DNA of 64,000 bases from Solirubrobacterales bacterium (GCA_012718975.1 JAAYBF010000185.1:66-64065); one strand, 5' to 3'; numbered from the stretch's first letter, positions 221 to 23,146 are shown. The notes: generated by a model not told the origin, from the sequence alone. Made by a program: numbers and translations.

Positions 221-234
221 TGCAATCGTTTGTA
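221..234 (+). promoter_or_regulatory. LacI/GalR-type operator-like box TGCAATCGTTTGTA (site 1 of 4), ending 3 nt before the transketolase-N ATG
   Basis: Near-palindromic 14-mer. It matches 11/12 of the core GCAATCGTTTGC that occurs in the same gene-relative orientation upstream of three other units (11694-11707, 20365-20378, 23133-23146). A TTGACA box lies at 200-205. Confidence 0.55.
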
Positions 235-237
235 GCA

Positions 238-1080
238 ATGTCTCCCGGAGAAACCTCAACACTGCCCGAGGCGCCCAGCTCAGCCGAGCTGGCGGCGCTC
301 GCCGTCCAGATCAAGCTCGAGTCCCTCGCGATGGTGTCGATCCAGGGATTCGGCTATCTCGGCCAGGCGCTGTCGGCCGGGGAGACCTTCGCGGTGCTGT
401 TCGGCGAGGAGATCGACCACGAGACGGACCGGTTCGTGCTCTCCCCGGGCCACTACGCGGTCGTCTACTACGCGGCGGCGGCGGCGGTCGGCCTGCTCGA
501 CCGCCACCAGCTCGCCGGCTACGGCCGTGACGGCGCGCTGCTGGAGGCGATCAGCACCGAGCGCACCCCGGGCGTCGACCTGACCTGCGGCTCGCTCGGC
601 CAGGGCCTCTCCGGCGCGGTCGGCTACGCGCTCGCGGCGCGGCTGGCCGGTGGCGGCCGCCGCACGTTCGCGTTCCTCAGCGACGGCGAGATGGAGGAGG
701 GCCAGGTCTGGGAGGCGGCGATGTTCGCCGCCCACCACGGCCTCGGCGACCTCGTCGTCGCGCTCGACGCGAACGGCTCGCAGGTCGACGGGCCGATCAC
801 CGACGTCACGACGATCGAGCCGATCGCGGAGAAGTGGGCGGCGTTCGGCTGGCACGTCGAGGAGGTCGACGGCCACGACATCGGCGCGCTGCGGCGCGCC
901 TTCGCAGCGTGCCGCGCCGACGACCGCCCGTCGGTCGTGGTCGCGCGCACCGACATCCTCGGCCGCCTGCGCTCGATCCCCGACACCGCGGACGGGCACT
1001 TCCTCAAGCTCGACGTCGAGCTCGAGGCGGCGATCCGGGCCGAGCTGGAAGGGATCGGGAGGACCGCGAGCCATGCTTGA
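238..1080 (+). CDS. Transketolase, N-terminal (TPP-binding) subunit of a split transketolase
   Basis: 280-aa ORF with GFGYLGQALSAGE, SPGHYAVVYYAA and LSDGEMEEGQVWEA...ALDANG (TPP/metal-binding loop), typical of two-subunit transketolases. It overlaps the next gene by 8 nt. Confidence 0.9.
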   Translation: MSPGETSTLPEAPSSAELAALAVQIKLESLAMVSIQGFGYLGQALSAGETFAVLFGEEIDHETDRFVLSPGHYAVVYYAAAAAVGLLDRHQLAGYGRDGALLEAISTERTPGVDLTCGSLGQGLSGAVGYALAARLAGGGRRTFAFLSDGEMEEGQVWEAAMFAAHHGLGDLVVALDANGSQVDGPITDVTTIEPIAEKWAAFGWHVEEVDGHDIGALRRAFAACRADDRPSVVVARTDILGRLRSIPDTADGHFLKLDVELEAAIRAELEGIGRTASHA

Positions 1081-2074
1081 ACCGCCCTACGACATCGTCC
1101 TCAAGCCGTACGGGCAGGCGCTCGTCGATCTCGCGCAGGAGCGCGAGGACGTCGTCTGCCTCGGCGCGGACCTCACCCGCCAGACCGAGACCGACCTCTT
1201 CCGCGACACGATCCCGGAGCGGTTCTTCAACGTCGGGATGGCGGAGGCGAACGCGATCGGGATCGCCGGCGGCCTGGCGCGCGCCGGCCACACGGTCTTC
1301 TTCAACACCTTCGGGGTCTTCGCGACCCGGCGCTGCCTGGACCAGATCGCGATGGCGGTCGCCTACCCGGCGCTGAACGTGAAGGTGATCGGCTTCATGC
1401 CGGGCCTGTCGAGCCCGGGCGGGCCGAGCCACCAGGCGATCGAGGACGTCGCGCTGATGCGCGCGCTGCCGAGCATGACGGTCGTCGACGTCGCCGACGC
1501 GACCGAGACCCGCCAGGCCGTCAGGGCGATCGCCGAGATCGACGGACCGGTCTACATGCGCCTCAAGCGCGGCGAGATCCCGGTGATCTTCGATGACGAC
1601 CACGAGCTGTCGCTCGACCGCGCGCAGGTGCTGGTCGAGGGCGCGGAGCTGACGATCGTCGCCTCCGGGATGCTGCTGGCGGCGGCGCTGTCGGCGGCCC
1701 GCCTGCTGGGCGAGCACGGCGTCGACGCCGGCGTGGTCAACGTGCCGGTGATCAAGCCGTTGGACGCAGCGACGGTGGTCGGCGCGTGCGCCGGCACGCG
1801 CGCGGTCGTGACCGCGGAGAACCACTCGGTGGTCGGCGGGCTGGGCTCGGCGGTCGCCGAGGCGCTCGCCGAGGCGGGCGCCGGCGTCCCGCTGCGCCGC
1901 GTCGGGATCGAGGACCGCTTCGCGGAGTCCGGCAGCCGGCCCTACCTCTTCAGCCGCTACGGGCTGTCGGTCCAGCGGATCGTCGAGCGGGCCTGGGAGG
2001 CCCTCGGCCGCGACGACTCCCCGCCGGCCGCCGCCGACGTCGTCGCCGACGAGGGCACCTACGCGCCGGTCTAG
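1073..2074 (+). CDS. Transketolase, C-terminal (pyrimidine-binding/C-terminal domain) subunit
   Basis: In-frame ATG at 1073 with GGGAGGA about 9 nt upstream. The product starts MLEPPYDIVLKPYGQALVDLA and contains FFNVGMAEANAIGIAGGLA. The track ORF 650..2074 is an upstream over-extension of this frame. Confidence 0.9.
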   Translation: MLEPPYDIVLKPYGQALVDLAQEREDVVCLGADLTRQTETDLFRDTIPERFFNVGMAEANAIGIAGGLARAGHTVFFNTFGVFATRRCLDQIAMAVAYPALNVKVIGFMPGLSSPGGPSHQAIEDVALMRALPSMTVVDVADATETRQAVRAIAEIDGPVYMRLKRGEIPVIFDDDHELSLDRAQVLVEGAELTIVASGMLLAAALSAARLLGEHGVDAGVVNVPVIKPLDAATVVGACAGTRAVVTAENHSVVGGLGSAVAEALAEAGAGVPLRRVGIEDRFAESGSRPYLFSRYGLSVQRIVERAWEALGRDDSPPAAADVVADEGTYAPV

Positions 2075-2107
2075 CCAACGCTTCACCACCACCAGGGAGA
2101 GAACCAG

Positions 2108-3493
2108 ATGAGCACCTATACCCCGAGCACGCCGATCGCCTCCCCCGGGGCGGTCATGGGCGTGGACTGGGAGAGCCGCGTCGACTTCCAGCGCCTGCGC
2201 GAGTACCGCCTGGCGCGCACGAAGGAGATGCTGGAGCAGTCGGAGTGCGGCGCGCTGCTGCTCTTCGACATGAACAACATCCGCTACACGACGGCGGCGC
2301 ACATCGGCAACTGGGCGCGCGACAAGTTCTTCCGCCGGGTGCTGATCACACGCGACGAGGATCCGATCCTCTGGGACATCGGCTCCGCGGCCCGCCAGCA
2401 CCAGATGCACAACCCGTGGCTGCCGGAGGAGAGCTGGCGGCCGGGGCTGTCGAGCTGGCGCGGCTCGATCGACGAGAACGTCGGCGTCGAGGTCGCCAAC
2501 GCGAAGAAGATCGCCGACCTGCTGCGCGAGCGCGGGCTGGAGAACGAGCCGGTCGGCATCGACGTCGGCGAGATCCCGACGATCAAGGCGCTCGAGGCCG
2601 AGGGCCTGACCGTCGTCGACGGCCAGACGACGATGCAGCGGGCGCGGATGATCAAGTCGCCCGACGAGGTCGTGCTGCTCGAGACGGCGGCCGCGATGGT
2701 CGACGCCGCCTACGACGAGCTGTACCGGGCGATGCGCCCGGGCGTGCGCGAGAACGACATCGTGGCGCTGGTCAGCAAGCTGCTGATCGAGCTGGGCTCG
2801 GAGGAGATCGAGGCGATCAACGCGATCTCCGGCGAGCGCTGCAGCCCGCACCCGCACGTCTTCTCGGACCGCATCCTGCGCCCGGGCGACATGGCCTACT
2901 ACGACATCATCCACTCGTTCATGGGCTACCGGACGTGCTACTACCGCACGCTCAACGTGGGTGGCTCGACCGAGTCCCAGCGCGACGCCTACCACCGCGC
3001 GCGCTACTACCTCGACGCGGCGATCGCCGAGATCAAGCCGGGCGCGACCTCGGCCGACGTGGTCGCGAAGTTCCCGAAGGCCGAGGAGTTCGGCTTCGGC
3101 TCCGAGGAGGAGGCGTTCGGCCTCCAGTACGTGCACGGCATCGGCCTCGGCAACTGGGAGCGTCCGCTGATGAGCCGCTACCACTCGCTCGAGCATCCGA
3201 TCGAGATCGAGGAGGGGATGGTCTTCGCGATCGAGACCTACTGGCCCGCCTCCGACGGCGTCTCGGCCGCCCGGATCGAGGAGGAGATCCACGTGACCGC
3301 CGACGGTCCGCGGATCCTCACCCGGTTCCCGGCCGACGAGCTGCTGGTCACCGGCACGCGCTACTGGAACGGCCACTCCTTCGCGGACGGCGCCAACCAC
3401 CTGCGCGAGCCCGACGCCCCGACCACCCCGGCGGTCCTGCCGGCCAGCAACGGGCAGGCGCCCGTCCTGCCGACGGCCGACCGCCCGCGCTGA
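2108..3493 (+). CDS. M24-family pita-bread hydrolase (creatinase/prolidase/DddP-like), paralogue 1
   Basis: 461 aa with an N-terminal creatinase-like region (LLLFDMNNIRYTT) and a C-terminal M24 core (GDMAYYDIIHSFMGYRTCYYRT, VHGIGLG, FAIETY, RIEEEIHVT). RBS GGGAGAG precedes the ATG. It is clearly paralogous to 5531..6868. Confidence 0.85.
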   Translation: MSTYTPSTPIASPGAVMGVDWESRVDFQRLREYRLARTKEMLEQSECGALLLFDMNNIRYTTAAHIGNWARDKFFRRVLITRDEDPILWDIGSAARQHQMHNPWLPEESWRPGLSSWRGSIDENVGVEVANAKKIADLLRERGLENEPVGIDVGEIPTIKALEAEGLTVVDGQTTMQRARMIKSPDEVVLLETAAAMVDAAYDELYRAMRPGVRENDIVALVSKLLIELGSEEIEAINAISGERCSPHPHVFSDRILRPGDMAYYDIIHSFMGYRTCYYRTLNVGGSTESQRDAYHRARYYLDAAIAEIKPGATSADVVAKFPKAEEFGFGSEEEAFGLQYVHGIGLGNWERPLMSRYHSLEHPIEIEEGMVFAIETYWPASDGVSAARIEEEIHVTADGPRILTRFPADELLVTGTRYWNGHSFADGANHLREPDAPTTPAVLPASNGQAPVLPTADRPR

Positions 3494-3498
3494 TCGCG

Positions 3499-4008
3499 AT
3501 GGCCGCGACCGCCCCGGGCCCGCTCGACGAGGCCGACTTCCGGGAGGTCATGGCCGCCGTGTGCACGCCTGTCACCGTCGTCACGACGCTCGACGGTGAC
3601 AGGCCGCACGGCACGACGGTGAGCGCGTTCGGCTCGCTGTCGCTGCGCCCGCCGATGGTCACGGTCGCGCTCGACCGCGACTCCGACCTGCTGGCGCTGG
3701 TGCGCAGGACGCGCCGGATCGGCGTCAACGTGCTCTCCCACGGCCAGGAGGAGCTGGCGCTGGCGTTCGCGCGCAAGGGCGGGGACAAGTTCGACGGCGT
3801 CGCGTGGGGGGTCGACCACGACCTCCCACGCATCGACGGCGTCGGCGGCTGGCTGGCCTGCGACGTCGCCGAGATCGTGCCCGGCGGCGACCATTCGATC
3901 GTCCTCGGCGGCGTCGTCGCCGCGCACGCCCAGAGCGAGCCGCCGCTGGTCTACCAGCGGCGCCTGTTCGGCACCCACTCGGCGTTCCTGGTCGCTCCCG
4001 GCGAGTAG
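3499..4008 (+). CDS. Flavin reductase-like domain protein (NAD(P)H:flavin oxidoreductase component)
   Basis: The ATG at 3499 is in frame with track ORF 1786..4008. The sequence FREVMAAVCTPVTVVTT...GTTVSAFGSLSLRPPMVTVAL...IVLGGVV is typical of the HpaC/NtaB-type flavin reductase fold. Confidence 0.85.
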   Translation: MAATAPGPLDEADFREVMAAVCTPVTVVTTLDGDRPHGTTVSAFGSLSLRPPMVTVALDRDSDLLALVRRTRRIGVNVLSHGQEELALAFARKGGDKFDGVAWGVDHDLPRIDGVGGWLACDVAEIVPGGDHSIVLGGVVAAHAQSEPPLVYQRRLFGTHSAFLVAPGE

Positions 4009-4087: not shown

Positions 4088-4110
4088 CGCGATCCCGCTA
4101 GGGGATCGCG
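4088..4110. terminator. Hairpin CGCGATCCC-gctag-GGGATCGCG between convergent operons (overlaps the stop of the ALDH gene)
   Basis: Perfect 9-bp inverted repeat with a 5-nt loop, read directly. It has no T-tract, so terminator function is inferred only from its position. Confidence 0.35.
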
Positions 4111-5534
4111 AAGTACTTGGACTCGGTGTAGTCGAGCAGGCCCTCGTGGCCGCCCTCGCGACCGAGCCCGCTCTGCTTGACGCCGCCGAACGGGGCGGCC
4201 GGGTCCGACACCAGACCGCGGTTGACGGCGATCATGCCGGCCTCGAGCCGCTCGCCGACGCGCAGCGCGCGGTCGAGGTCGCGCGAGTAGACGTAGCTGA
4301 CCAGGCCGTACTCGGTGTCGTTGGCGGCGGCGATCGCCTCGTCCTCGGAGTCGAAGGCGACGACCGGCGCCACGGGTCCGAAGATCTCCTCGCCGAGCAG
4401 CCGCGCGCCGGCGGGGACGCCGGCGAGCACCGTCGGGGCGTAGAAGTGGCCGGCGCGGTCGAGCGCCGCGCCGCCGCAGAGCACGCGCGCGCCGCGGCCG
4501 GTGGCGTCGTCGACGAGCTCGCCGACCGACTCGACGGCCGCCGCGTTGACGAGCGGCCCGACGGCCGCGCCGTCGAGGCCGGGGCCGACGTCGAGGGCGC
4601 CCATCCGCGCGGCGAGCCGCTCGGCGAACTCCTCGGCGACCGGCGCCTCGACGTAGAAGCGGTTGGCGGCGGTGCAGGCCTCGCCGATGTTGCGCATCTT
4701 GGCGACCATCGCCCCGTCGACGGCGGCGTCGAGGTCGGCGTCGGCGAAGACGAGGAACGGCGCGTTGCCGCCCAGCTCCATCGACGTGTTGACGACGCGG
4801 TCGGCGGCGGCGCGCAGCAGCAGGCGGCCGATCTCGGTGGAACCGGTGAACGACAGCTTGCGCACCGCGTCGTGGCCGAGCAGCGCGGCGGCGACGTCGC
4901 CGGAGCGGCGGCTCGGGACGACGTTGACGACACCGTCGGGAACGCCGGCCTCGGCGAGGACGTCGGCGACCAGCAGCGCGGTCAGCGGCGTCTCGGACGC
5001 CGGCTTGAGCACGACCGTGCAGCCGGCGGCGAGGGCCGGGCCGATCTTGCGCGTCGCCATCGCCGCGGGGAAGTTCCACGGCGTGATCAGCAGGCAGACC
5101 CCGACCGGCTGGTGGACGACCAGCATCCGGTTGGCGCCGCTCGGCGCGGTGCCGAAGCTGCCGAGGTTGCGGACCGCCTCCTCGGCGTACCAGCGGAAGA
5201 ACTCGGCGGCGTAGGCGGTCTCGCCCTCGGCGTCGGCGCGCGGCTTGCCGTTCTCGCGCACGATCAGCTCGGCGATCTCGCCGGCGCGGGCGGTCATCGT
5301 CTCGAAGGCCGCGCGCAGGATCTCCGACCGCTCGCGCGGGGCGCGGCCCGCCCAGTCGGCGGCGGCGGCCGCGGCCGCGTCGGCGGCGGCGAGCGCGTCC
5401 TGCACGGTGCCGTTGGCGACCTCGGCGATCGTCTCCTCGCTGGCGGGGTCGGCGACCGCGAAGCTGCCGCCGTCGGAGGCGTCGACGGTCCGCCCGCCGA
5501 TCCGCAGCCCGCCGGCGGGCACGGCGGCGCTCAC
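4098..5534 (-). CDS. NAD(P)-dependent aldehyde dehydrogenase, succinate-semialdehyde dehydrogenase (GabD)-like
   Basis: GTG at 5534 overlaps the upstream stop (GTGA). ALDH motifs are present: ITPWNFP, FTGSTEIG, MELGGNAP, GEACTAANRFYV and EEIFGPV. The track ORF 4098..6692 over-extends into the upstream gene. Confidence 0.88.
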   Translation of the reverse strand: MSAAVPAGGLRIGGRTVDASDGGSFAVADPASEETIAEVANGTVQDALAAADAAAAAAADWAGRAPRERSEILRAAFETMTARAGEIAELIVRENGKPRADAEGETAYAAEFFRWYAEEAVRNLGSFGTAPSGANRMLVVHQPVGVCLLITPWNFPAAMATRKIGPALAAGCTVVLKPASETPLTALLVADVLAEAGVPDGVVNVVPSRRSGDVAAALLGHDAVRKLSFTGSTEIGRLLLRAAADRVVNTSMELGGNAPFLVFADADLDAAVDGAMVAKMRNIGEACTAANRFYVEAPVAEEFAERLAARMGALDVGPGLDGAAVGPLVNAAAVESVGELVDDATGRGARVLCGGAALDRAGHFYAPTVLAGVPAGARLLGEEIFGPVAPVVAFDSEDEAIAAANDTEYGLVSYVYSRDLDRALRVGERLEAGMIAVNRGLVSDPAAPFGGVKQSGLGREGGHEGLLDYTESKYFAIP

Positions 5535-6868
5535 CGGACCACCCCGTCGGGCGCGATCGGCGCGCCGTCGTCGCCGCGCGGGCTGTTGCGGTGCGACTCG
5601 ATCTCGCGGGTGGTGTCCATCGGCCCGTCGGCGGTCAGGAAGTGGCGCGAGCCGGCGACCATCAGGTCCTCGGCGGGGAAGCGCGAGATCACCTCGCAGC
5701 CGTCGGCGGTCACGACCAGCTCCTCCTCGATGCGGGCGGCCTGCCAGCCGTCCGACGCGGGCCAGAACGTCTCCAGGGCGAAGACCATCCCCTCCTCGAT
5801 CGGCTCGGGATTGTCGAGCGACACCAGCCGCGAGATGATCGGCTTCTCCCAGATCGAGAGGCCGAGCCCGTGGCCGAACTGCAGCGCGAAGGCGGCCTCC
5901 TCGTTGGGGAAGCCGAACTCCTCGGCGCGCGGCCAGACCGACACGACGTCGGCGGTGCTGACGCCGGGCTTGATCAGGTCGATCGCGGCGTCGAGGTAGT
6001 AGCGGCAGCGCTTGTAGGCGTCGACGAGGCCGCGCGAGGCGCTGCCGATCGCGAATGTGCGGTAGTAGCAGGTGCGGTAGCCGAGGTAGGAGTGCAGGAT
6101 GTCGAAGTAGGCCGGGTCGCCGGGCCGCAGCGCGCGGTCGGTGAAGACGTGCGGGTGCGGGTTGGCGCGCTCGCCGGAGATCGCGTTGACGCCCTCGACG
6201 TGCTCGGAGCCCATGTCGTAGAGCGACTTGGAGACCAGCCCGACGCACTCGTTCTCGCGCATGCCGGGGCGCAGCGCGCGGTAGAGGTCGTCGTAGGCGG
6301 CGTCGACCATCATCGCGGCGGTGTCGAGCAGCGTGATCTCGTCGCGCGTCTTGATCACGCGCGCGTCCTGCATCAGCTGCTGGCCGTCGGCGACCTCGAG
6401 GCCGGCCCGCTGGAGGGCGAACATCACGCTCGGCTCGACGACGTCGACGCCGACCGGGCTGTCGAGCAGGCCCTGCTCGGCGAGCACCGCGTGGACCTTG
6501 GCGGCGACGTCCTCGGCGCGTCCGGCCGACGGCGGCATCGCGCCGCGCATCGTCGAGATGCCGGCCGGGCTGCGGCCGTCCAGCCACGGGCAGTGGAGGT
6601 CGTGGTGGCGGGCCGCCGAGCCGAAGTCCCAGACGATCGGCTCGCCGCCGCGCGGCAGCAGGCAGAAGCGCGCGAGCTTGTCGATCGCCCACGTCCCGAT
6701 GTGGGTCGCGGTGATGTAGCGGATGTTGTTCATGTCGAAGCAGAGCAGGGCGCCCATGTCGGACGCCTCCAGCATCTGCCGCGCGCGGGCGAGCCGCTCG
6801 GCGCGGAGCCGCTCCATGTCGGCGCGCTGCTCCCAGTCGACGGCCTGCAGGCCGTAGGTGGCGCTCAT
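5531..6868 (-). CDS. M24-family pita-bread hydrolase, paralogue 2
   Basis: 445 aa, collinear with 2108..3493: LLCFDMNNIRYIT, PGDPAYFDILHSYLGYRTCYYRT, GHGLGLS, FALETF, RIEEELVVT. Confidence 0.85.
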   Translation of the reverse strand: MSATYGLQAVDWEQRADMERLRAERLARARQMLEASDMGALLCFDMNNIRYITATHIGTWAIDKLARFCLLPRGGEPIVWDFGSAARHHDLHCPWLDGRSPAGISTMRGAMPPSAGRAEDVAAKVHAVLAEQGLLDSPVGVDVVEPSVMFALQRAGLEVADGQQLMQDARVIKTRDEITLLDTAAMMVDAAYDDLYRALRPGMRENECVGLVSKSLYDMGSEHVEGVNAISGERANPHPHVFTDRALRPGDPAYFDILHSYLGYRTCYYRTFAIGSASRGLVDAYKRCRYYLDAAIDLIKPGVSTADVVSVWPRAEEFGFPNEEAAFALQFGHGLGLSIWEKPIISRLVSLDNPEPIEEGMVFALETFWPASDGWQAARIEEELVVTADGCEVISRFPAEDLMVAGSRHFLTADGPMDTTREIESHRNSPRGDDGAPIAPDGVVR

Positions 6869-6887
6869 CGTGCTCCTTCCGGTCCAG

Positions 6888-7868
6888 TCACGCGCGCGCG
6901 GGGGCCTTTACCCGCGCGCGGATCTCGTCAGCGAGGCGCTCGGCGCTCGGCAGGAAGTCGTCCTCGAGCGTCGGGCTGTAGGGAATCGGCAGCTCGCCGC
7001 TGGCGATCACCCAGCTGTCGTCGATGTCCTCGAGGCCGCGCTCGGCGACGGCGCCGAGCAGGCCGCGCGCCCAGCCGCCGAGCTCGGGCCCCTCGTCGTA
7101 CATCACGACGCGGTTGGTCTTGGCGACCGACTCGAGCACCGTCCGCTCGTCGATGGGGCGGAGCGTGCGCAGGTCGATCACCTCGGCCTCGATCCCGTCG
7201 CCGGCGAGCGTCTCGGCGGCGGCGAGCGCGTCGTGGACGCCGCGCATCGCGGCGACGATCGTGATGTCGGAGCCCTCGCGGACGACGTTGGCCTCGCCGA
7301 TCGGCACGGTGCCGTCGCCCTCGGGGCCCGAGATCGAGTAGAGCCGCTTGTGCTCGAGCACGACAACCGGGTTGTCATCCCGGATCGCGGACTTCAGCAG
7401 GCCCTTGGCGTCGGCCGGGGTCGACGGCGCGACGATCTTGATGCCGGGCACGCCGAGCAGCCACGGCGTCGGGGTCTGGGAGTGGATCGCGCCGAAGCGG
7501 CCGCCGGCGCCGACCGCGCAGCGCACGGTCAGCGGCACCGGGGCCTGCTCGTTCGAGATGTACCAGAACTTCGCCGCCTGGTTGACGAGGCTGTCCATGG
7601 CGAGGATCAGGAAGTCGCCGAACATCACCTCGAAGACGGGCCGCTTGCCGACGACGGCGCTGCCGAACGCGGCGCCGGCGAGCGCCAGCTCGGAGATCGG
7701 GGTGTCGAAGACCCGGCCGGGGCCGAAGCGCTCGTAGAGGCCGGGGGTGACGGCGAACACCCCGCCGGCGGCGGCCACGTCCTCGCCGAAGAACAGGACG
7801 CGCTCGTCGCGCTCCAGCTCCTCCTCGAGCGCGGCGCAGATCGCCTTGCGGAAGGTCGTGTCGCTCAT
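6888..7868 (-). CDS. 2-oxoacid (pyruvate/acetoin-type) dehydrogenase E1 component, beta subunit
   Basis: The product starts MSDTTFRKAICAALEEELERDERVLFFGEDV and contains FDTPISELALAGAAFG and IKIVAPSTPADAKGLL. The ATG at 7868 overlaps the E1-alpha stop (ATGA). Confidence 0.9.
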   Translation of the reverse strand: MSDTTFRKAICAALEEELERDERVLFFGEDVAAAGGVFAVTPGLYERFGPGRVFDTPISELALAGAAFGSAVVGKRPVFEVMFGDFLILAMDSLVNQAAKFWYISNEQAPVPLTVRCAVGAGGRFGAIHSQTPTPWLLGVPGIKIVAPSTPADAKGLLKSAIRDDNPVVVLEHKRLYSISGPEGDGTVPIGEANVVREGSDITIVAAMRGVHDALAAAETLAGDGIEAEVIDLRTLRPIDERTVLESVAKTNRVVMYDEGPELGGWARGLLGAVAERGLEDIDDSWVIASGELPIPYSPTLEDDFLPSAERLADEIRARVKAPARA

Positions 7869-9795: not shown

Positions 9796-10100
9796 GAGGG
9801 CGCGTCCTCGCCGAGCAGCGAGCGCACCAGCGCCAGCGACGCCTCGGAGCTGCCGGCGCCCTCGACGGTGCCGTAGAGCAGCCGCGCGAGCTGGGACAGC
9901 AGGTACGGGTGGACGCCGATGTCGTAGAGCGCCTTGAAGTCGCGCTCCTCGATCGCCGTGCGCTCCTGCGGCAGCAGCTCGAACTGGTCGAGCACGGCGC
10001 CGGGGTCCTGCTCGAACCGCTGGCGCAGCTCGACGTTCCACTTCATCTGCTGGACGAAGTCGTGCGTCGCCAGCTCGCGGTTGAAGTTCTCGATCGCCAT
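9792..10100 (-). CDS. LigA-type small subunit of a class III extradiol ring-cleavage dioxygenase
   Basis: The product MAIENFNRELATHDFVQQMKWNVELRQRFEQDPGAVLDQFELLPQERTAIEERDFKALYDIGVHPYLL matches the LigA-family pattern. The ATG at 10100 has GGAAGGGGATAGGAAG upstream and sits 19 nt after the ligB-like stop. Confidence 0.8.
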   Translation of the reverse strand: MAIENFNRELATHDFVQQMKWNVELRQRFEQDPGAVLDQFELLPQERTAIEERDFKALYDIGVHPYLLSQLARLLYGTVEGAGSSEASLALVRSLLGEDAPS

Positions 10101-15173: not shown

Positions 15174-15174
15174 C

Positions 15175-16668
15175 TCACATGCCGTCGAGCTCGACCGTGA
15201 CCGTCTTCGCCTCGGTGAAGAAGTCGCGCGAGTGGACGCCGCCCTCGCGGCCCACGCCCGACAGCTTCGCCCCGCCGAACGGGGTGCGCAGATCGCGCAC
15301 GAAGAAGCAGTTGACCCACACCAGCCCGGCGCGGACCGAGGCCGCGACGCGGTGGGCGCGCGAGAGGTTGGTCGTCCAGACCATCGCCGCGAGCCCGTAC
15401 GGGGTGTCGTTGGCGCGCTCGAGCGCCTCGGCCTCGCCGTCGAACGGGCTGACCACCAGCGCGGGCCCGAAGATCTCGTCGCGCACGCAGCGGTGGTCGG
15501 CGGGCAGGCCCTCGATGATCGTCGGCTCGACGTAGAAGCCGTCGGCGAGCGCGGGGTCGGACGGGACGCCGCCGCCGAGGCGGACGGCGCCGTCCGCGGT
15601 CCCGGACTCGAGGAAGCCGACGACGCGGTCGCGGTGCTCGGCGGTGACCATCGGGCCGATCTGGGTGGCGGGATCGAGCGGGTCGCCGATCGGCAGCGCC
15701 TTCGCGCCGGCGATCAGCCGCTCCATGAACTCGTCGTAGATCGGCCGCTCGAGCAGCAGCCGCGAGCCGGCGAGGCAGACCTCGCCCTGGTTCTTGAAGA
15801 TGCCCTTCAGCGTGCCGGCGACCGCCAGGTCGAGGTCGGCGTCGGCGAAGACGATGTTCGGCGACTTGCCGCCCAGCTCGAGCGACAGCCCCTTCAGCGT
15901 CGGCGCCGCGTTGGCCATGATCGCCTTGCCGGTCGTCGACTCGCCGGTGAAGGTGACGAGGTCGACGTCGGGGCTCGCGACGAGGTACTCGCCGGCCGCG
16001 TCGGGGCCGAAGCCCTGGACCACGTTGAGCACGCCCGGCGGCAGCACCTCGGCGGCCAGCTCGCCGAGCATCGTCGCGGTGACCGGCGACTGCTCGGCGG
16101 GCTTGAGGATCGCCGTGTTGCCGAACGCGAGCGCCGGCGCGATCTTCCACGAGCCGAGCATCAGCGGGAAGTTCCAGGGCGAGATCGCGGTGACGACGCC
16201 CTTGGGCTCGTAGCGACTGTAGGTGAGGTGCTTGGTGGCGGGGAAGACCTCGGCCTCCGACATCCGCAGCCAGTCGGCGAAGAAGCGCAGGTTGCGCTCG
16301 ACGCGCGGCAGGTCGAAGGTGCGCGACTCGGTGATCGGCTTGCCCATGTCGCGCGTCTCGGCCTGGGCGATCTCCTCGCGCCGGTCGTGGACGGCGTCGG
16401 CGAGGGCGTGCATCAGCTTGCCGCGCTCGTCGGCGGACATTCGCGGCCACGGCCCCTCGTCGAACGCGCGGCGGGCGGCGGCGACGGCGCGGCGGACGTC
16501 CTCGGCCCCGCCCTCGGCGACCCGCGCCCAGACGCGGCCGGTGTGCGGGTCGACGCTCTCGAAGGTGCGGCCGTCGGCGGACGGGACGGCCTCGCCGTCG
16601 ATGACGTGCAGCACGTCGCGGCCGAAGTCGCGGTGCTCGAGCCGCTGCTGGTCGGCGGTCTGGGTCAT
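15175..16668 (-). CDS. 2-hydroxymuconic/2-aminomuconic semialdehyde dehydrogenase-type ALDH
   Basis: 497 aa with ALDH motifs ISPWNFP, FTGESTTG, LELGGKSP and GEVCLAGSR. It sits within a meta-cleavage operon. Confidence 0.88.
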   Translation of the reverse strand: MTQTADQQRLEHRDFGRDVLHVIDGEAVPSADGRTFESVDPHTGRVWARVAEGGAEDVRRAVAAARRAFDEGPWPRMSADERGKLMHALADAVHDRREEIAQAETRDMGKPITESRTFDLPRVERNLRFFADWLRMSEAEVFPATKHLTYSRYEPKGVVTAISPWNFPLMLGSWKIAPALAFGNTAILKPAEQSPVTATMLGELAAEVLPPGVLNVVQGFGPDAAGEYLVASPDVDLVTFTGESTTGKAIMANAAPTLKGLSLELGGKSPNIVFADADLDLAVAGTLKGIFKNQGEVCLAGSRLLLERPIYDEFMERLIAGAKALPIGDPLDPATQIGPMVTAEHRDRVVGFLESGTADGAVRLGGGVPSDPALADGFYVEPTIIEGLPADHRCVRDEIFGPALVVSPFDGEAEALERANDTPYGLAAMVWTTNLSRAHRVAASVRAGLVWVNCFFVRDLRTPFGGAKLSGVGREGGVHSRDFFTEAKTVTVELDGM

Positions 16669-16859
16669 CGGTCCTCCATCTCGCTCTTCGGCACTCCCCC
16701 GACGCCCCAGTGCTCGGCCGGGACCTCGGAGAGGATCACCCGCACCGACGCGCGCGGCGCGCCCGTCGTCTCGACGACGGCGTCGGTCAGGCGGGCGATC
16801 AGCTCGCTCTTGACCGCCGTGTCGCGGCCCTCGATCAGGGTGACCTGGACGAGCGGCAT
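16665..16859 (-). CDS. 4-oxalocrotonate tautomerase family protein
   Basis: 64 aa starting [12 protein letters not shown] (catalytic Pro-1 context). It overlaps the upstream stop by 1 nt (TGATG). Confidence 0.85.
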   Translation of the reverse strand: MPLVQVTLIEGRDTAVKSELIARLTDAVVETTGAPRASVRVILSEVPAEHWGVGGVPKSEMEDR

Positions 16860-17638
16860 CAGGCCGCCGCCGTCACGGTGCCGAGGCCGTCGAACTCCGC
16901 GCTGACCGTCTGCCCGGCGCCGATCGCGACGGCGTCGGTGAGCGCCCCGGAGAGGATCAGCGAGCCGGCGGGGAGGGTCCTGCCCTGCTCGGCGAGGCGG
17001 TTGGCCAGCCACGCCACGGCGGCCGCCGGGTGCTCCATCACGGCGGCGCCCGCGGCGGTGGCGACGAGCTCGCCGTCGCGGCGCAGGACGCAGCCGAGCA
17101 GGCGCAGGTCGCCGACGTCGGCGGGCGCGGCGGCGACCGGGCCGACGATCAGGCTCGCGGCGCTGGCGCTCGCGTTGTCGGCGACGACATCGGGGAGGCG
17201 GAAGTCGAAGTCGCGGTAGCGCGAGTCGATCACCTCGAGCGCGCCGAAGACGGCCTCGGTCGCTGCCAGCACCTCGACGACGGTCGTCGGCCCGGCCAGC
17301 TCCTCGCCGAGCAGGAAGGCGATCTCCGGCTCGACGCGCGGATGGATCAGCCGATCCAGCGGCAGCGGCGTCGCGGCCTCGTGGACCATCGCGTCGGTGA
17401 GCCAGCCGTAGAGCGGGTCGTCGACGCTCATCTGGCGCTGCTTGGCGCGGCTGGTGAGGCCGAGCTTGGCGCCGACGATCCGCTCGCCGGCGGCGAGCCG
17501 GCGCTCGATCCCCCGCCACTGGACGTCGTAGGCCTGCTCGATCGTCAGGTCGGGCTCGGTCGCGGTGAACCGCTCGATGTCGGTCACCTGCTCGACGGCG
17601 GCGGCGAGCCGGTCGGCGATCGCGTCGAGGTCAGGCAC
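16859..17638 (-). CDS. 4-oxalocrotonate decarboxylase / 2-oxopent-4-enoate hydratase family protein (copy A)
   Basis: 259 aa with a GTG start. Contains [14 protein letters not shown] and [10 protein letters not shown], typical of the MhpD/XylI/XylJ fold. A second paralogue lies at 19525..20346. Confidence 0.85.
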
Positions 17639-18653
17639 TGGCGGCCTCCCTTGCGGCGGCCATCTCGGCGGCCACCTCGATGATCAGGTCCTCCTGCCCG
17701 CCGACGGCCTTGCGCCGGCCGATCTCGAGCAGGATGTCGCTGGCGCGGACGCCGAAGCGCTCCTCGGCGCGGCGCGCGTGCAGCAGGAACGACGAGTAGA
17801 CGCCCGCGTAGCCGAGCACGAGGCTGTCGCGGTCGACGATCTGCTCGCGCGGCATCAGCGGCGCGACGACGTCCTCGGCGACGTCGGCGATCTTCAGCGG
17901 GTCGACGCCGGTCTCGATGCCCATCCGCGCGCAGGCGGCGACGAGGATCTCGGTCGGCGTGTTGCCGGCGCCGGCGCCGAGCCCGCGCGTGCAGGCGTCG
18001 ATCCAGCGGGCGCCGGCGTCGATCGCGGCGAGCGAGTTGCCGACGCCGAGCGACAGGTTCTGGTGGCCGTGGAAGCCGACGGCGACCTCGTCGGGCAGCG
18101 CGTCGCGCAGCGCGCCGACGCGGGCGGCGGCGGTGTCGGGCACCAGCGCCCCGGCGGAGTCGGTGACGTAGACGACCTCGGCGCCGGCCTCGGCCATGAT
18201 CGCCGCCTGGCGGGCGAGCTCGTCCGGCTCGGTCATGTGGGCCATCATCAGGAAGCCGATCGCGGTCATCCCGAGCTCGCGGGCGAGCCCGAGGTGCTGG
18301 ATCGAGATGTCGGCCTCGGTGCTGTGGGTGGCGATCCGGACGACCGCGGCGCCGAGCTCGCGGGCCCGCTTGAGGTCGTCCTTGGTGCCGATCCCGGGCA
18401 GCAGCAGCACGGCGAGCCGGGCGTCGTCCATCGCCTCGCGGGCGGCGGTCAGCAGCTCGAGCTCGTCGGTGCCGGAGAAGCCGTAGTTGAACGAGGAGCC
18501 GGCGAGGCCGTCGCCGTGGGCGACCTCGATCACCGGCACGCCGCAGCCGTCGAGCGCCCCCGCGACCGCGCTGACCTGCTCGCGCGTGTACTGGTGGCGC
18601 ATCGGGTGGCTGCCGTCGCGCAGCGTCGAGTCGCAGAGCGTGATCGCGGTCAC
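17631..18653 (-). CDS. 4-hydroxy-2-oxovalerate aldolase
   Basis: Starts [19 protein letters not shown] and contains [23 protein letters not shown], a DmpG/MhpE/BphI-type sequence. GTGA overlap. Confidence 0.92.
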
Positions 18654-19528
18654 GACGCCACCGCCTCGACCTGGGCGAGCTCCTCGCCGACGCGGACGGC
18701 GGCGGCGGTCATGATGTCGAGGTTGCCGGCGTAGGGCGGCAGGTAGTCGCCGGCGCCCTCGACCTCGATGAAGACCGCGACGCGGTCGTCGTCGAAGACC
18801 GGCTCGCCGCGCAGGCGGTAGCCGGGAACGTAGCCCTGGACGCGCGCGGCCATCGCCTGGATGCTCTCCGCGATCGCGTCGCGGTCGGCGCCGGGCGTGA
18901 GCGCGCAGAACACGGTGTTGCGCATCAGGATCTCCGGCTCGGCGGGGTTGAGGATGATGATCGCCTTGCTGTCGCGGGCGCCGCCGATGTCGGCGACCCC
19001 ACCGGCGGTCGTACGGGTGAACTCGTCGATGTTCTGGCGCGTGCCGGGGCCGGCGCTGGAGCTGGAGATCGTCGCGACGATCTCGGCGTAGGGCACCTCG
19101 GTCGCGGCGCTGACAGCGGCGACGATCGGGATCGTCGCCTGCCCGCCGCAGGTGATCAGGTTGACGTCGGGGGCCGAGCGATGCTCGTCGAGGTTGACGA
19201 CCGGGACGACGCCGGGGCCGAGCTTGGCGGGCGTCAGGTCGATCGACTGCACGCCGACGGCGGCGAGCTTCTCGGCGTGGACGACGTGGGCGGACGCGGA
19301 GGTGGCGTCGAAGGCCATCGCGACCGAGTCGGCGTTGTCGACGAGCCAGTCGATCCCCTCGTGGGAGGTCTCCAGCCCGGCGGCGCGGGCGCGGGCGAGG
19401 CCGTCGGACTCCGGGTCGATGCCGACCATCGCGACCGGCTCGAGCCGCTCGGAGCGCGACAGCTTGGCCATCAGGTCGGTGCCGATGTTGCCCGAGCCGA
19501 CGATCGCGCAGGGGACGCGTTCGCTCAT
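18650..19528 (-). CDS. Acetaldehyde dehydrogenase (acetylating)
   Basis: Starts [16 protein letters not shown] and contains [12 protein letters not shown], a DmpF/MhpF/BphJ-type sequence. ATGA overlap. Confidence 0.92.
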
Positions 19529-20346
19529 GCCTGTTCCTCCTGGGAGACGAAGCGGACGCCGACCGACCCGAGGTGGGCGAACTCGGCGGTGACGGAGCTG
19601 CCGGCCACGACGGGGGCGGCGGCGTGCAGCGCCCCGGCGAGCACGACGTCGCCGGCGCGCAGGCCGTCGCCGTAGGCGCCGAGCGTGTTGGCCAGCCAGG
19701 CGAGGCAGCGCACGGGGTTGCCGAGCACGGCGGCGCCGGCGCCGGTCGCGGTGACGGTGCCGTCGATCGTCAGCGCCATGCCGCAGAGGCGGAGGTCGAG
19801 CGCGGTCGGCTCGAGCATCCGCCCGCCGAGCACGCAGCGGGCCGAGGAGGCGTTGTCGGCGATCGTGTCGGCGAGGGTGATCTTCCAGTCGGCGACGCGG
19901 CTGTCGATGATCTCGATCGCCGGGAGCACGCCCGCGATCGCGCGCAGGGCGGCGGAGACGTCGACGCCTGGCCCGGCGAGGTCGGTGCCGAGCACGAAGG
20001 CCAGCTCGGCCTCGACGCGCGGCGCGACCAGCTCACCGACCTCGACGGCGTCGCCGTCGGCGACCATCATGTTGTCGAAGAGGACGCCGTAGTCGGGGCT
20101 GTCGACCCCGAGCTGGCGCTGCATCGCGGCCGAGGTCAGCCCGACCTTGCGCCCGACGATCCGCTCGCCGCCGGCGAGCCGGCGGGCGGTGTTCAGCCCC
20201 TGGATCGCGTAGGCGTCCTCGATCGTCAGCCCCGGCGCGGTCTCGGTCAGCGCGGCGATCCCGACCCGGGCCTCCTCCGCGTCGAACAGCGCGTTGGCAA
20301 GCTCCTGCCGCACCGCGGCCCCAACGGTTGCGTTGTCGTGCTCCAT
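19525..20346 (-). CDS. 2-keto-4-pentenoate hydratase family protein (copy B), first gene of the meta-cleavage operon
   Basis: ATG at 20346 (MEHDNATV...). Contains [14 protein letters not shown] and [10 protein letters not shown]. The track ORF 19525..20499 over-extends across the operator. Confidence 0.85.
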
Positions 20347-20364: not shown

Positions 20365-20378
20365 TGCAAACGATTGCT
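20365..20378 (-). promoter_or_regulatory. LacI-type operator-like box (site 3), 19 nt upstream of the meta-cleavage operon
   Basis: TGCAAACGATTGCT, identical to site 2 over 14 nt. The shared flank TCCACCGC follows in both sites. Confidence 0.55.
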
Positions 20379-20525: not shown

Positions 20526-21734
20526 CTAGAGCAGCATCGCGACGCGCTCGTCGACGCCGAGCAGCGCCTTGCCGTAGACCTCGCGCGCGATCCCGTCATT
20601 GGAGAGCGCGTGGCGGCTGGCGGTCTCGACATCGCGCCAGATCCGCTCGATGCCCGCCACCTGGGCGAACCCGGACGTGCCGTGGGCGTTCATCAGGACG
20701 TCGACCGCCTCGCGGCAGGTCTTGGCGACATAGGCGGTGTCCATCCGGATCCGGCAGCGCTCCATCAGGTCGAGCTGCACGCCGGCGAGCGCCGCCTCGT
20801 CGACGACCGTCGCGGCCCGCTCGGCGACGAGCTGGGCGGCGTTGATCATCGCGGCCGCCTCGGCGACCTGGACCTGGAAGCCGACCGAGTCGGTCTGCGC
20901 CTTGTAGATCGAGGTGGCGATCGCCCGCTTGGGCGCCTTCTCGATCACGTAGTCGAGCGCCGCCAGCGCCATGCCGACCAGCGGCCCGGTGAGCGCGAAG
21001 GTGAGCATGCCGGTGAACGGCGCGCGGTAGAGGACCTCGTCGCGATGCTCGGTGGCGTAGTTGCCCTCGAGCGCGTCGCCGAGCGAGATGACGCGGTGGT
21101 CGGGCACGAACGCCTCCTCGACCACGACGGTGTTCGAGGCGGTGGCACGCATGCCGGCGACGTGCCAGGTGTCCCCGACGGTGAAGTCGTCGGAGGGGAT
21201 CAGCGCCAGGCCCTGGTAGCCGGCTCCGGCGCCGTCGCCGATCGGCACGCCGAGGCTGGCCCATTCGGCGAACTGGGAGCCCGAGGCGTACGGCCACTTG
21301 CCGGTCACGATCAGCCCGCCGTCGGCACGGCGGGTCTCGGCCAGCGGCGGGATGATCCCGACCATCCCGGTGTCCGGGCCGTCGGCCCAGACCTCGGCCT
21401 GCGCGGCGTCCGGGTAGAGACCGGCCATCCACGAGGCGGTGTTCATGATGCCGACCACCCACGCGGTCGACGCGCAGCCGCGCGCGAGCTCGATCGCGAC
21501 CCCGAGCAGGGCGCGCCCGTCGGCCTCGTAGCCACCGAGCCGGCGCGGCGCGGTCAGCCGCAGCAGCCCCGCCTCGCGCACCGCCTCGATGACGCCGTCG
21601 TCGAGGCGGCGGTCACGGTCGGCCTGCGCCGCCGCCGCGGCGAGCTGCGGACGCAGGGCGGCGGCGCGGGCGATCAGCTCGGCCCGGCGCTCGGCCGGGT
21701 CCTCGGCTGTCAGTGGTGGCGGCGTGGCACTCAT
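20526..21734 (-). CDS. Acyl-CoA-dehydrogenase-fold flavin-dependent monooxygenase, oxygenase component (HsaA/HpaH-C2/DszC-like)
   Basis: About 402 aa with ACAD-like N, middle and C domains but the context of a two-component oxygenase. The ATG at 21734 has AGGAG 9 nt upstream; the track start at 21755 is a TTG. Confidence 0.75.
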   Translation of the reverse strand: MSATPPPLTAEDPAERRAELIARAAALRPQLAAAAAQADRDRRLDDGVIEAVREAGLLRLTAPRRLGGYEADGRALLGVAIELARGCASTAWVVGIMNTASWMAGLYPDAAQAEVWADGPDTGMVGIIPPLAETRRADGGLIVTGKWPYASGSQFAEWASLGVPIGDGAGAGYQGLALIPSDDFTVGDTWHVAGMRATASNTVVVEEAFVPDHRVISLGDALEGNYATEHRDEVLYRAPFTGMLTFALTGPLVGMALAALDYVIEKAPKRAIATSIYKAQTDSVGFQVQVAEAAAMINAAQLVAERAATVVDEAALAGVQLDLMERCRIRMDTAYVAKTCREAVDVLMNAHGTSGFAQVAGIERIWRDVETASRHALSNDGIAREVYGKALLGVDERVAMLL

Positions 21735-21777
21735 GCGATCTGCTCCTGAGGTCAATTCTGTGCTTTTAGACGACGAA

Positions 21778-21807
21778 GCGCCACGACGGTCGAGACCGCC
21801 GTGGCGC
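21778..21807 (-). terminator. Intercistronic hairpin between the SBP gene and the monooxygenase gene (attenuator/terminator candidate)
   Basis: GCGCCACG..CGTGGCGC outer stem plus CGGT/ACCG inner stem with a CGAG loop. There is no U-tract. Confidence 0.4.
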
Positions 21808-21828
21808 CCGCGTCCAACTGCTTCGGTA

Positions 21829-23109
21829 CTACCCGTCGCTGGAGTCGCCGCCCGAGCTGTTGGTGAACAGCGGGTCGACCCAGCCCTCGGGGATCCAGTC
21901 GCCCGGGCCGTTGGCGATGCCCGGGGTGTCGAGGTTCGCGTCCGCCTCTGCCCACTCGTCGAGGTTCTCGTCGGTGATCAGGACGCTGCGATAGGTGACG
22001 GTGTTGATGATCGGACCGTCGCCCGCGAGCATCCGCAGGGTGACCTCGGCGATGGTCTTGCCCATGCCGTCGGCCGACAGACCGGTGCCGAACCCGTCGT
22101 AGGTGTCGTTGTTGTTGAGCCAGTAGCCGAGCGAGCCGCGCATCGGCGAGCGGTCGCCGGTCGGCGGGACCGGCCGGCCCGACTCCTCGAAGGCCGCCAT
22201 GGCGCCGGGCGCCATCGCCGCGATGTCGAGGATGCCGTCGATCGGCGCGGGGTTCGACGCGAGGAACTTCAGCGTCTCGGCCTTGGCGATCGCCGACACG
22301 AAGTTGCCGGTGACCTCACCGCCGATCTCGACGTCCGGGCAGTGCGAGAGGACCTCCTCGAAGGCGGCCATGCCGCCGACCTCGGCGCCCGAGCCGGGAA
22401 CCGCGTGGACGACCAGCACGTTGCCCTCGCCGCCCATGATCCGCACGACGGCCGAAGCTGCGGCGGCCGAGGAGTGGAAGATGTTCGACTGGACGTTGAC
22501 CACGTACGGGGAGTCGATGTGGTGGGCGCCGACGACGACCGGGATGCCCTGGTCGGCCGCACGCTTGATCTGCCGCTCGAAGGCGTTGGCCTGGATCGGC
22601 TGGAGGATGATGATGTCCGGCTTCTTGCGCAGCAGAGCCTCGAACTGCTGGATCTGCGCCGCGACGTCGATCGAGTCGGCGGTCGACTGGAAGATCACGT
22701 CGTCGACCATCGGGCTCGCCTTCAGATCCTTCTGGATCTGATCGGTCATCAGCGTCTGGTAGTCGGTGTTCAGCGCCGCCCACTGGATGCCGACCGTGTA
22801 GGGCTCGGACCCGCTCGGCGTCCAGTCGGTCCAGGCGCTCCGGCGCACCGGCTCGAAGTACCCGGCGTACTCCTCCTGGACCTCCTCGGGCAGTTCGCCC
22901 AGGACGTCGTCCGGGTCCTCGGGCGGCTTGAGCTCGGCGTAGCCACACTCGTTGGCGGCCGGGAACTCCGCCAGCGACAGCTCGCCGCTGTCCGCCGTAG
23001 TGGAGCTCGTCGAGGCGCCAGAGCCGCCTCCGTCATCGTCCCCGCCGCACGCGGCGAGGCCAAGCGCAGCCGCTATGAACAGAAGCGGTACAGCCAAGCG
23101 TAGCTTCAC
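21829..23109 (-). CDS. Periplasmic-binding-protein type I solute-binding lipoprotein (sugar/ribose-type fold), orphan
   Basis: The GTG at 23109 is preceded by AAGGAG. It has a lipobox LGLAAC followed by a Gly/Ser/Asp linker and a PBP1-like body (IIILQPI..., VVVGAHHID, VLVVHAVPGSG). No permease or ATPase gene is adjacent. Confidence 0.75.
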   Translation of the reverse strand: MKLRLAVPLLFIAAALGLAACGGDDDGGGSGASTSSTTADSGELSLAEFPAANECGYAELKPPEDPDDVLGELPEEVQEEYAGYFEPVRRSAWTDWTPSGSEPYTVGIQWAALNTDYQTLMTDQIQKDLKASPMVDDVIFQSTADSIDVAAQIQQFEALLRKKPDIIILQPIQANAFERQIKRAADQGIPVVVGAHHIDSPYVVNVQSNIFHSSAAAASAVVRIMGGEGNVLVVHAVPGSGAEVGGMAAFEEVLSHCPDVEIGGEVTGNFVSAIAKAETLKFLASNPAPIDGILDIAAMAPGAMAAFEESGRPVPPTGDRSPMRGSLGYWLNNNDTYDGFGTGLSADGMGKTIAEVTLRMLAGDGPIINTVTYRSVLITDENLDEWAEADANLDTPGIANGPGDWIPEGWVDPLFTNSSGGDSSDG

Positions 23110-23132
23110 CTCAGTCTCCTTCAAGGCTCGAC

Positions 23133-23146
23133 AGCAAACGATTGCA
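23133..23146 (-). promoter_or_regulatory. LacI-type operator-like box (site 4), 24 nt upstream of the SBP start
   Basis: AGCAAACGATTGCA; its reverse complement contains GCAATCGTTTGC. Confidence 0.55.

Follow-up and report, generated by a model that had tools for sequence, protein, structure and literature searches.

Four putative LacI-family operators at a catabolic supercluster of a Solirubrobacterales bacterium, and a candidate regulator group in related loci

What binds a 12-nucleotide box that recurs four times, each time just before a gene start, in a stretch of DNA that encodes no regulator of the class to which the box points? The question is raised by 64,000 nucleotides from a Solirubrobacterales bacterium (GCA_012718975.1, JAAYBF010000185.1:66-64065), the whole of which is called the window here. 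An earlier note, made from the sequence alone, had read the boxes as operators of a single LacI-type regulon. On the strength of sequence comparison we hold it likely, with a probability of roughly 0.85, that the four boxes are operators of one local LacI-family repressor whose gene lies outside the window, and that a repressor dimer would occlude the promoters until an inducer releases it, placing 24 genes under common control. A search of the window with the core GCAATCGTTTGC returned the three exact copies and the single 11/12 copy of the earlier note at exactly its coordinates, and they are given here with scores from a position weight matrix (PWM) derived solely from sites in other loci.

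222-233, plus strand: operator copy 1, GCAATCGTTTGT (11/12), 29.6 bits, 4 nt before the ATG of the split-transketolase operon
11695-11706, minus strand: operator copy 2, exact, 27.7 bits, in mid-gap with 14 nt on either side
20366-20377, minus strand: operator copy 3, exact, 30.4 bits, 19 nt before the ATG of the meta-cleavage operon
23134-23145, minus strand: operator copy 4, exact, 25.6 bits, 24 nt before the GTG of the binding-protein gene, overlapping the predicted transcription start

No further match to GCAATCGTTTGC with one mismatch or fewer occurs anywhere in the window. Chance would supply 0.10 such matches where four are found, and none of 100 dinucleotide-preserving shuffles reaches four. 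The boxes score 25.6 to 30.4 bits with the PWM and the runner-up among about 64,000 positions, which is coding, scores 8.2 bits, although both the matrix and the lists of sites started from the window 12-mer and are biased toward it. As no position falls between 8.2 and 25.6 bits, and as a relaxed search of the window for the palindrome GCAANCGNTTGC with up to two mismatches returned chance level (34 hits, 31.5 expected), the window holds exactly four sites. All four are entirely non-coding in a window whose non-coding share is 8.6% (P ~5e-5), and all lie within 40 nt upstream of the start codon of a first gene (P ~2e-6). The gaps for sites 1 to 4 are 4, 14, 19 and 24 nt in that order, such that the earlier placement upstream of first starts stands and its range of 3-24 nt becomes 4-24 nt. 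The sites are all single, with no paired operators, and all four carry the same T/T central variant and an identical orientation relative to the downstream gene.

The class of the box can be read from its symmetry. Among exact matches to GCAANCGNTTGC in 2.0 Mb of loci, the central pair is TT/AA in 25 cases, AT in 14, TA in 12 and something else in 6; the central positions are thus distributed like independent A/T choices, which makes the motif a true palindrome, GCAAWCGWTTGC, extending weakly to 14-16 bp (T...A, C...G). Two features of the window copies were consequently considered as functional and rejected: the T-CG-T asymmetry is one state of W-CG-W, with central positions that are independent A/T, and the common orientation relative to the gene, correctly described by the earlier note for the four window sites, varies among relatives. 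GCAAWCGWTTGC is an even palindrome with CG at its centre, the form that marks LacI-family sites and was found for 1173 of 1303 transcription factors (TFs) (Ravcheev et al. 2014, PMC4052901). The box is in addition identical at 11 of 12 positions to the PurR box GCAAACGTTTGC, the symmetric A/T variant being present in relatives, and one putative Haemophilus influenzae PurR site holds the exact reverse complement of the box core (PMC3739930). Two other traits of LacI-TF sites are seen as well, namely co-occurrence with a cognate LacI gene across genomes and a non-coding position upstream of genes (4/4 in the window, 93/104 in relatives). The assignment to the LacI/GalR/PurR operator class made in the earlier note is thus borne out by the central-CG even palindrome, the likeness to the PurR box and the co-occurrence with LacI genes in relatives.

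The genes concerned were called by third-position GC bias in this window of about 72% G+C and annotated with Pfam and NCBIfam. Downstream of the four boxes lie five transcription units, which take up 238-23109 in unbroken succession; the units contain what had been described, and the earlier count of about 23 genes becomes 24.

238-4008, plus strand: unit 1, transketolase N-subunit, transketolase C-subunit, M24 hydrolase (DddP/creatinase-like) and flavin reductase (HsaB/HpaC-like); Pfam and NCBIfam, none at an equivalog cut-off
4098-11680, minus strand: unit 2, FMN reductase, LigB, LigA, HIBADH-like reductase, E1 alpha, E1 beta, M24 hydrolase and SSADH-like aldehyde dehydrogenase; Pfam and NCBIfam
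11721-12662, plus strand: divergent formamidase/acetamidase-family gene, with operator 2 in common with unit 2; Pfam FmdA_AmdA
12755-20346, minus strand: unit 3, dmp-type nine-gene meta-cleavage operon; Pfam and NCBIfam
20526-23109, minus strand: unit 4, Peripla_BP_4 solute-binding lipoprotein (lipobox LAAC) and HsaA/HpaB(C2)-like flavin monooxygenase; Pfam and NCBIfam

Operator 2 occupies a gap of 40 bp (11681-11720) between the divergent start codons at 11680 (minus) and 11721 (plus). Unit 3 encodes a hydratase, an acetaldehyde dehydrogenase, an aldolase, a 4-OD-like decarboxylase, a 4-OT tautomerase, an HMSD-like aldehyde dehydrogenase, an ACMSD-like amidohydrolase, RidA and a catechol-2,3-dioxygenase-like enzyme, the last of which reaches 315.8 bits with the C23O model (cut-off 320.2). 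The last five genes of unit 2 (HIBADH-like, E1 alpha, E1 beta, M24 and SSADH-like) form the conserved core of the regulon, the same families standing under the box in relatives.

Additional insight is gained when the box is followed into homologous loci. With the M24 gene of unit 1 as query, 80 loci among the matches listed in reference genomes were taken with 10-kb flanks (1.37 Mb). This enzyme-centred set holds 9 exact boxes where 0.1 are expected (about 90-fold) and 29 at one mismatch or fewer where 3.45 are expected. Box-positive loci number 13 of the 80 and come from Thermoleophilia, Solirubrobacteraceae, other Actinomycetota metagenome-assembled genomes (MAGs), several Ktedonobacterales and a Bradyrhizobiaceae MAG (L006). 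The boxes are nearly always intergenic and beside homologs of window genes, and they precede homologous genes despite changed gene order; in L004, for example, a box stands before a HIBADH-transketolase-M24 operon. The closest relative among the matches listed, L003, has an M24 gene 91% identical to that of the window and carries five box copies, which lie before its transketolase operon, a second M24 gene, a monooxygenase gene and an ATP-binding cassette (ABC) transporter operon; the monooxygenase, directly downstream of one box, is of the acyl-CoA dehydrogenase (ACAD) type, and the final gene of the ABC operon is a homolog of the window binding protein, both families of unit 4 being thereby represented in L003. 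Alignment of the transketolase promoters of the window and L003 leaves TTGACA and an 18-nt block, TTTCTGCAATCGTTTGTA, identical with the T variant included, in surroundings that have diverged. The L003 contig (CAZMVL010000060.1) is labelled as a MAG of Paraperlucidibaca (Gammaproteobacteria) and has 72.5% G+C; together with the 91% identical M24 gene, this composition makes it probably a mis-binned actinobacterial contig.

When all proteins of these loci were clustered, one family was found to travel with the box. Its members, of about 340 amino acids, have a LacI head and hinge, and Pfam confirmed them as PF00356 with Peripla_BP_1/3. The LacI genes adjoin box copies in four loci (L004, L049, L054 and L077), and that of L003 runs off the end of the locus. 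Of the 13 box-positive loci, 6 have a LacI gene within 10 kb on either side, compared with 1 of the 67 box-negative loci (Fisher p=3.7e-5).

The converse sampling gives a similar picture. An alignment of four of the LacI orthologs was used to fetch 80 metagenome loci, among which the box is present in 30 of the 44 whose LacI protein is at least 50% identical to the query. These 44 loci hold 55 box matches in 326 kb, about one being expected at the shuffle rate of the enzyme-centred set, and most boxes lie 10-500 bp from the LacI gene. In about two dozen loci a box is found 40-260 nt upstream of the LacI start, which suggests that the LacI gene would frequently be autoregulated. Deep-coding DNA makes up 69% of the sequence of the 160 loci taken together, yet it holds only 11 of the 104 sites, the other 93 being outside it (p=4e-35); several of the 11 counted as coding resemble mis-called starts, the gene calls for these loci being heuristic. 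The equal density in coding DNA that the earlier note had named as a sign against its reading is therefore not what these loci display.

The genes behind these boxes define a compact regulon. The commonest first gene downstream of a box is LacI (20 cases), followed by HIBADH-like (16), a Liv-type Peripla_BP_6 binding protein (15) and M24 (10), and the same operons then hold ABC permeases and ATPases, E1 alpha/beta and an SSADH-like gene. In the archetype, seen in L132, L133 and L092, the LacI gene is divergent from a single operon of transporter, HIBADH, M24, E1 alpha, E1 beta and aldehyde dehydrogenase genes, with one or two boxes between them. The conserved core regulon accordingly comprises the LacI gene, a Liv-type ABC transporter, the HIBADH-like gene, the M24 hydrolase, thiamine diphosphate (ThDP)-dependent E1 alpha/beta and the SSADH-like gene, and its counterpart in the window is the distal part of unit 2. 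Judged against this archetype, the transketolase, monooxygenase/binding-protein and meta-cleavage operons were added to the regulon in this particular lineage. Paired operators occur in some relatives, with a centre-to-centre distance of 13 bp directly downstream of the LacI gene (L083:4529-4553, L084:2000-2024, L086:1285-1309 and L156:537-561) or 62-67 bp apart in divergent LacI/operon gaps (L088:17696-17769, L092:5437-5514, L115:1807-1885 and L132:9875-9953).

A regulator of another family was also met in the same genomic niche. GntR/FCD regulators are encoded in 28 homologous M24/transketolase loci (L009-L037 and others, for example L026:2264-3049 and L048:6246-6995), including those of Streptomyces, Pseudonocardia and Amycolatopsis, and 23 of the 28 are free of the box. 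As a candidate for the box regulator this family was rejected, there being no association between it and the box across the 80 enzyme-centred loci (p=0.76). From this distribution, LacI here and GntR/FCD elsewhere are best described as a non-orthologous replacement of the regulator over the same enzyme set.

The LacI orthologs share a head of the form TLRDVA.RAGVH(P/A).T(V/A)SRALNP, in which His replaces the Ser of most family members, and an insertion after the helix-turn-helix that makes them two residues longer there than PurR and LacI. Among solved structures they come closest to CcpA, RbsR and PurR (155-175 bits), CcpA 2o20 leading by a small margin (175 bits). With curated models all scores stay below the cut-off: 204-248 bits for the RbsR-type NCBI model (cut-off 382), 193-228 for CytR (436), 180-207 for PurR (501) and 156-201 for the CcpA model TIGR01481 (442). 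The homologs are labelled in their sources only as "LacI family transcriptional regulator". Going by these scores, the regulators are an unnamed orthologous group in the RbsR/CytR/PurR/CcpA branch. RbsR and CytR resemble them in architecture (helix-turn-helix, hinge and Peripla_BP core) and in operator type, and their regulons too are local, frequently autoregulated and include an ABC transporter. They differ in that the scores fall short of cut-offs of 382-531 bits, in that the regulon here lacks ribose or nucleoside genes, and in that the group has the distinctive VH(P/A) recognition segment together with the post-helix-turn-helix insertion.

The likeness to PurR raises the question of whether the regulatory logic is shared along with the operator. 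A member of the same LacI subfamily could act in the manner of PurR, binding DNA when loaded with a co-repressor such as an end product or a preferred nitrogen or carbon source, and would then impose feedback or preference repression. The 11/12 identity of the box to the PurR box speaks for this, as does the similar score of the regulators against the PurR, RbsR and CytR models, and PurR itself retained an RbsR-like motif while its ligand and default state changed (PMC4052901). PurR is, besides, a LacI-family dimer with a non-sugar effector on an even central-CG palindrome of nearly the same core (GCAAACGTTTGC compared with GCAAWCGWTTGC). Its targets, however, are genes for purine or pyrimidine biosynthesis, whereas those here are catabolic enzymes and transporters, the usual setting of LacI repressors released by an inducer; identity to PurR is only about 28-31%, and the PurR model score is less than half its cut-off. 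PurR orthologs are moreover confined to three gammaproteobacterial orders, Enterobacterales, Pasteurellales and Vibrionales (PMC4052901). We regard co-repressor-dependent control as unlikely, and release by an inducer as the probable logic here.

A second alternative places the boxes in a wider network, as cre-like sites of a global LacI-family regulator analogous to CcpA, which could be encoded anywhere and would subject the cluster to carbon-catabolite repression. By eye, TGCAATCGTTTGCA comes near to the cre consensus WTGNAANCGNWNNCW, and cre is in this sense loosely compatible with the box. CcpA is also a LacI-family protein and, by a small margin, the top structural match, and no local regulator for the box was seen in the 64-kb window. 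Global control would however be expected to spread, and within the 64 kb the box is found at this cluster only, the other catabolic and transport operons, at 28-41 kb, having none. In relatives the LacI gene is local, adjoins the box and is often itself preceded by one, the regulon content is narrow and conserved, and the CcpA model score stays far from its cut-off. On balance a CcpA-like explanation is quite improbable.

It is conceivable that one of the regulators that the window does encode binds the box, the likeness to LacI sites being coincidental, as short palindromes are bound by many families. The window encodes an HxlR, a PucR and two TetR regulators as well as a HisKA_3 kinase with a LuxR/NarL-type response regulator, and domain annotation here agrees with the TetR, HxlR, PucR and NarL types listed in the earlier note. 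In the enzyme-centred set, homologs of the window HxlR and PucR proteins were found in none of the box-positive loci and of TetR in no locus at all, set against LacI in six; the regulator-centred sampling likewise finds the box beside LacI genes, and the central-CG even palindrome is the LacI signature. A window-encoded regulator is for these reasons very improbable. Finally, that the four copies are mere remnants of a duplicated promoter cassette or small repeat, as the flank likeness of sites 2 and 3 (GCGGTGGA ... GCAATCGTTTGCA.TAC) and the common T/T variant might suggest, is barely credible for a 12-mer that is kept, with differing flanks, at non-homologous promoters in loci of Actinomycetota and Ktedonobacterales, shows a strong preference for non-coding DNA and goes with one particular regulator gene.

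Returning to a local LacI-family repressor, the positions of the boxes within their promoters suggest how it could act. The promoter elements concerned are as follows.

200-205, plus strand: perfect TTGACA, putative -35 of unit 1, read from the sequence and conserved in L003
23169-23174, minus strand: perfect TTGACA, putative -35 of unit 4, read from the sequence
23151-23146, minus strand: -10-like GACTAT of unit 4 with a 17-nt spacer, by eye
11692-11687, minus strand: -10-like TACACT beside operator 2, by eye
11707-11712, plus strand: -10-like TAAGAT beside operator 2, by eye
20388-20383, minus strand: -35-like TGGACG at operator 3, by eye
20365-20360, minus strand: -10-like AATACT at operator 3, by eye

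Sites 2 and 3 fall by eye in a 17-nt spacer between -35-like TGGATC or TGGACG and -10-like TACACT or AATACT. This position offers an explanation for the flank GCGGTGGA (minus strand) to which the earlier note had drawn attention at both sites. The flank is indeed present, and its spacing to the box differs (5 nt at one site, 7 nt at the other); as a part of the operator the flank TCCACCGC was rejected on account of that difference and of its absence elsewhere, and it is more likely a -35-like element, with a TGGAYS hexamer 17 nt from the -10-like hexamers. The 11681-11720 gap resembles a compact bidirectional, leaderless promoter pair under a single operator. Leaderless or short-leader mRNAs are common in Actinomycetota, and we infer that only such transcripts could account for the short distance from site to start codon.

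In the mechanism that we propose, a LacI-family dimer would sit on the palindrome GCAAWCGWTTGC with its hinge helices at the central CG. The boxes would overlap the core promoters of short-leader or leaderless units, site 1 lying over the -10 and start region, sites 2 and 3 between -35 and -10, and site 4 over the start site, and by virtue of this overlap the bound repressor would exclude RNA polymerase. The single centred operator at 11.7 kb could in this way close both of the divergent, possibly leaderless, promoters. Release of the repressor by a small molecule would then turn on the 24 genes together; the likeliest candidate for this molecule is the substrate of the pathway or an early intermediate, and a sugar is improbable. 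Most LacI-TFs bind DNA without ligand and are released by an inducer (PMC4052901); with catabolic genes and transporters as targets, substrate-induced derepression is thus the likeliest logic. The ancestral regulon would have been the conserved core, enlarged here as the same operator came to stand before the transketolase, phenol-hydroxylase and catechol meta-cleavage operons. The motif, where it lies, how far it is conserved and its link with the LacI subfamily are shown here, and we infer the binding, repression rather than activation, the inducer logic and the promoter hexamers.

The proposed mechanism is that of a canonical LacI repressor and operator, and it is the target set that is atypical. 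The local LacI-TF regulons collected in RegPrecise follow the same logic, a palindrome before co-localised operons and the TF gene that is conserved across genomes (Ravcheev et al. 2014). Carbohydrate metabolism accounts for 96% of the LacI-TF groups with an assigned pathway (PMC4052901), in keeping with the earlier remark that a sugar-type repressor over aromatic or N-aromatic genes would be unusual. The exceptions are the nucleoside and nucleobase groups AdeR, HpxR, UriR and PurR, plus NtdR, and as effectors other than sugars, nucleobases, nucleosides and a protein are known (PMC4052901).

Several observations weigh against the reading of the boxes as operators of one local LacI repressor. 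The targets here are M24, ThDP-E1, HIBADH, SSADH and aromatic ring-cleavage genes, not the carbohydrate genes of the RegPrecise groups. The regulator of this very genome is unseen: six-frame tblastn of the 64-kb window with seven LacI queries (E<=1e-3) found no LacI homolog, in agreement with the earlier note; no database record matches the product of gene 1 exactly, through which the DNA to the left of position 1 could have been reached; and a search with the LacI fragment of L003 for the genome's own LacI returned only fragments of at most 69% identity with generic names. Within 10 kb, 7 of the 13 box-positive enzyme-centred loci are without a LacI gene, and 14 of the 44 loci with a close LacI are free of the box, though many of these are contigs of 1-4 kb. 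A strict scan for sigma-70 promoters and terminators called nothing at any of the four sites, so that the occlusion geometry is drawn from hexamers picked by eye. The boxes also lie nearer to the start codons, at 4-24 nt, than the 30-140 nt usual for LacI-TF sites (PMC4052901).

The arrangement in L003 offers a hint as to where missing genes could be. The Peripla_BP_4 lipoprotein of unit 4 (21829-23109) is an orphan, genes for a permease or an ATPase being absent from its surroundings, and a homolog with 55% identity ends the four-gene ABC operon that lies directly upstream of the transketolase operon in L003. By analogy, the missing transporter genes, and perhaps the LacI gene too, may lie just left of window position 1. 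The M24 product was found only on metagenome contigs of 5.3 kb and 2.6 kb, both of which end inside the transketolase gene.

What the regulon degrades can be approached from its enzymes. The additions of aromatic type comprise a two-component HsaAB/HpaBC-like hydroxylase, extradiol dioxygenases of the LigAB and C23O types, a full meta-cleavage lower pathway and the formamidase, and the RidA and ACMSD-like enzymes would lend the pathway an aminophenol or hydroxyanthranilate flavour. The core enzymes (M24 DddP/creatinase-like, ThDP E1, HIBADH-like and SSADH-like) gave no NCBIfam match at equivalog level, and the closest solved M24 structures are of the DddP type at only about 74 bits. In several relatives, subunits of a xanthine-dehydrogenase-type molybdenum hydroxylase (MoCoBD, FAD_binding_5 and Fer2_2) and a flavin amine oxidase are encoded beside or under the box (L038:3153-6334, L088:12176-16314, L111:12676-14994 and L091:6908-8509). 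Their presence near the box hints that the conserved pathway could handle an N-heterocycle or an amine.

It could be speculated, at a little less than even odds, that this LacI branch senses a non-carbohydrate effector, such as an aromatic amine, a phenol, an N-heterocycle or an intermediate derived from one, and controls a widespread, biochemically uncharacterised route of M24, ThDP E1 or split transketolase, HIBADH-like and SSADH-like enzymes, to which relatives often add xanthine-dehydrogenase-type molybdenum hydroxylases and whose regulon has been expanded here to a complete pathway of phenol hydroxylation and catechol meta-cleavage. In the limited literature collection that was searched, no paper describes the box as the operator of such a LacI regulator, and nothing was found on this gene set or on a LacI-type regulator of aromatic or N-heterocycle degradation. 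If the assignment is true, it would provide a LacI regulon for the degradation of aromatic or nitrogen compounds, a class essentially absent from about 180 LacI groups with an assigned pathway. The comparison with relatives makes an orphan motif into a testable pair of regulator and operator, and adds to the LacI repressors a new orthologous group with the operator GCAAWCGWTTGC and a conserved core regulon in Actinomycetota and Ktedonobacterales. The pair also gives a handle on a widespread, uncharacterised catabolic set of M24, ThDP enzymes, HIBADH and SSADH, as the repressor ligand should be the pathway substrate or an early intermediate and a ligand screen could thus reveal the compound that is degraded. 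The locus would further exemplify the growth of a regulon by operator acquisition, with ring-cleavage operons recruited under a LacI repressor, and would illustrate regulator replacement, LacI here and GntR/FCD in other lineages. A LacI-type sensor of a non-sugar aromatic or nitrogen compound, with its 12-bp operator, could in addition be a useful biosensor part.

Other parts of the window are of separate interest. A nitrogen-compound cluster without the box occupies 28777-41226 and encodes an amino-acid permease, a polyamine-type ABC transporter, a class-III aminotransferase, a PucR-family regulator, saccharopine dehydrogenase, alanine dehydrogenase and an aldehyde dehydrogenase. At 44033-49734 there are two adjacent minus-strand open reading frames (927 and 973 amino acids) that are essentially without Pfam domains, the sole match being a weak InlB B-repeat, and the G+C of this stretch is about 66-67%, compared with 72% window-wide. 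The protein of 437 amino acids encoded at 50099-51412 carries the TetR_N DNA-binding domain twice, as a tandem-duplicated TetR, and after it comes an ordinary second TetR gene at 51499-52185.

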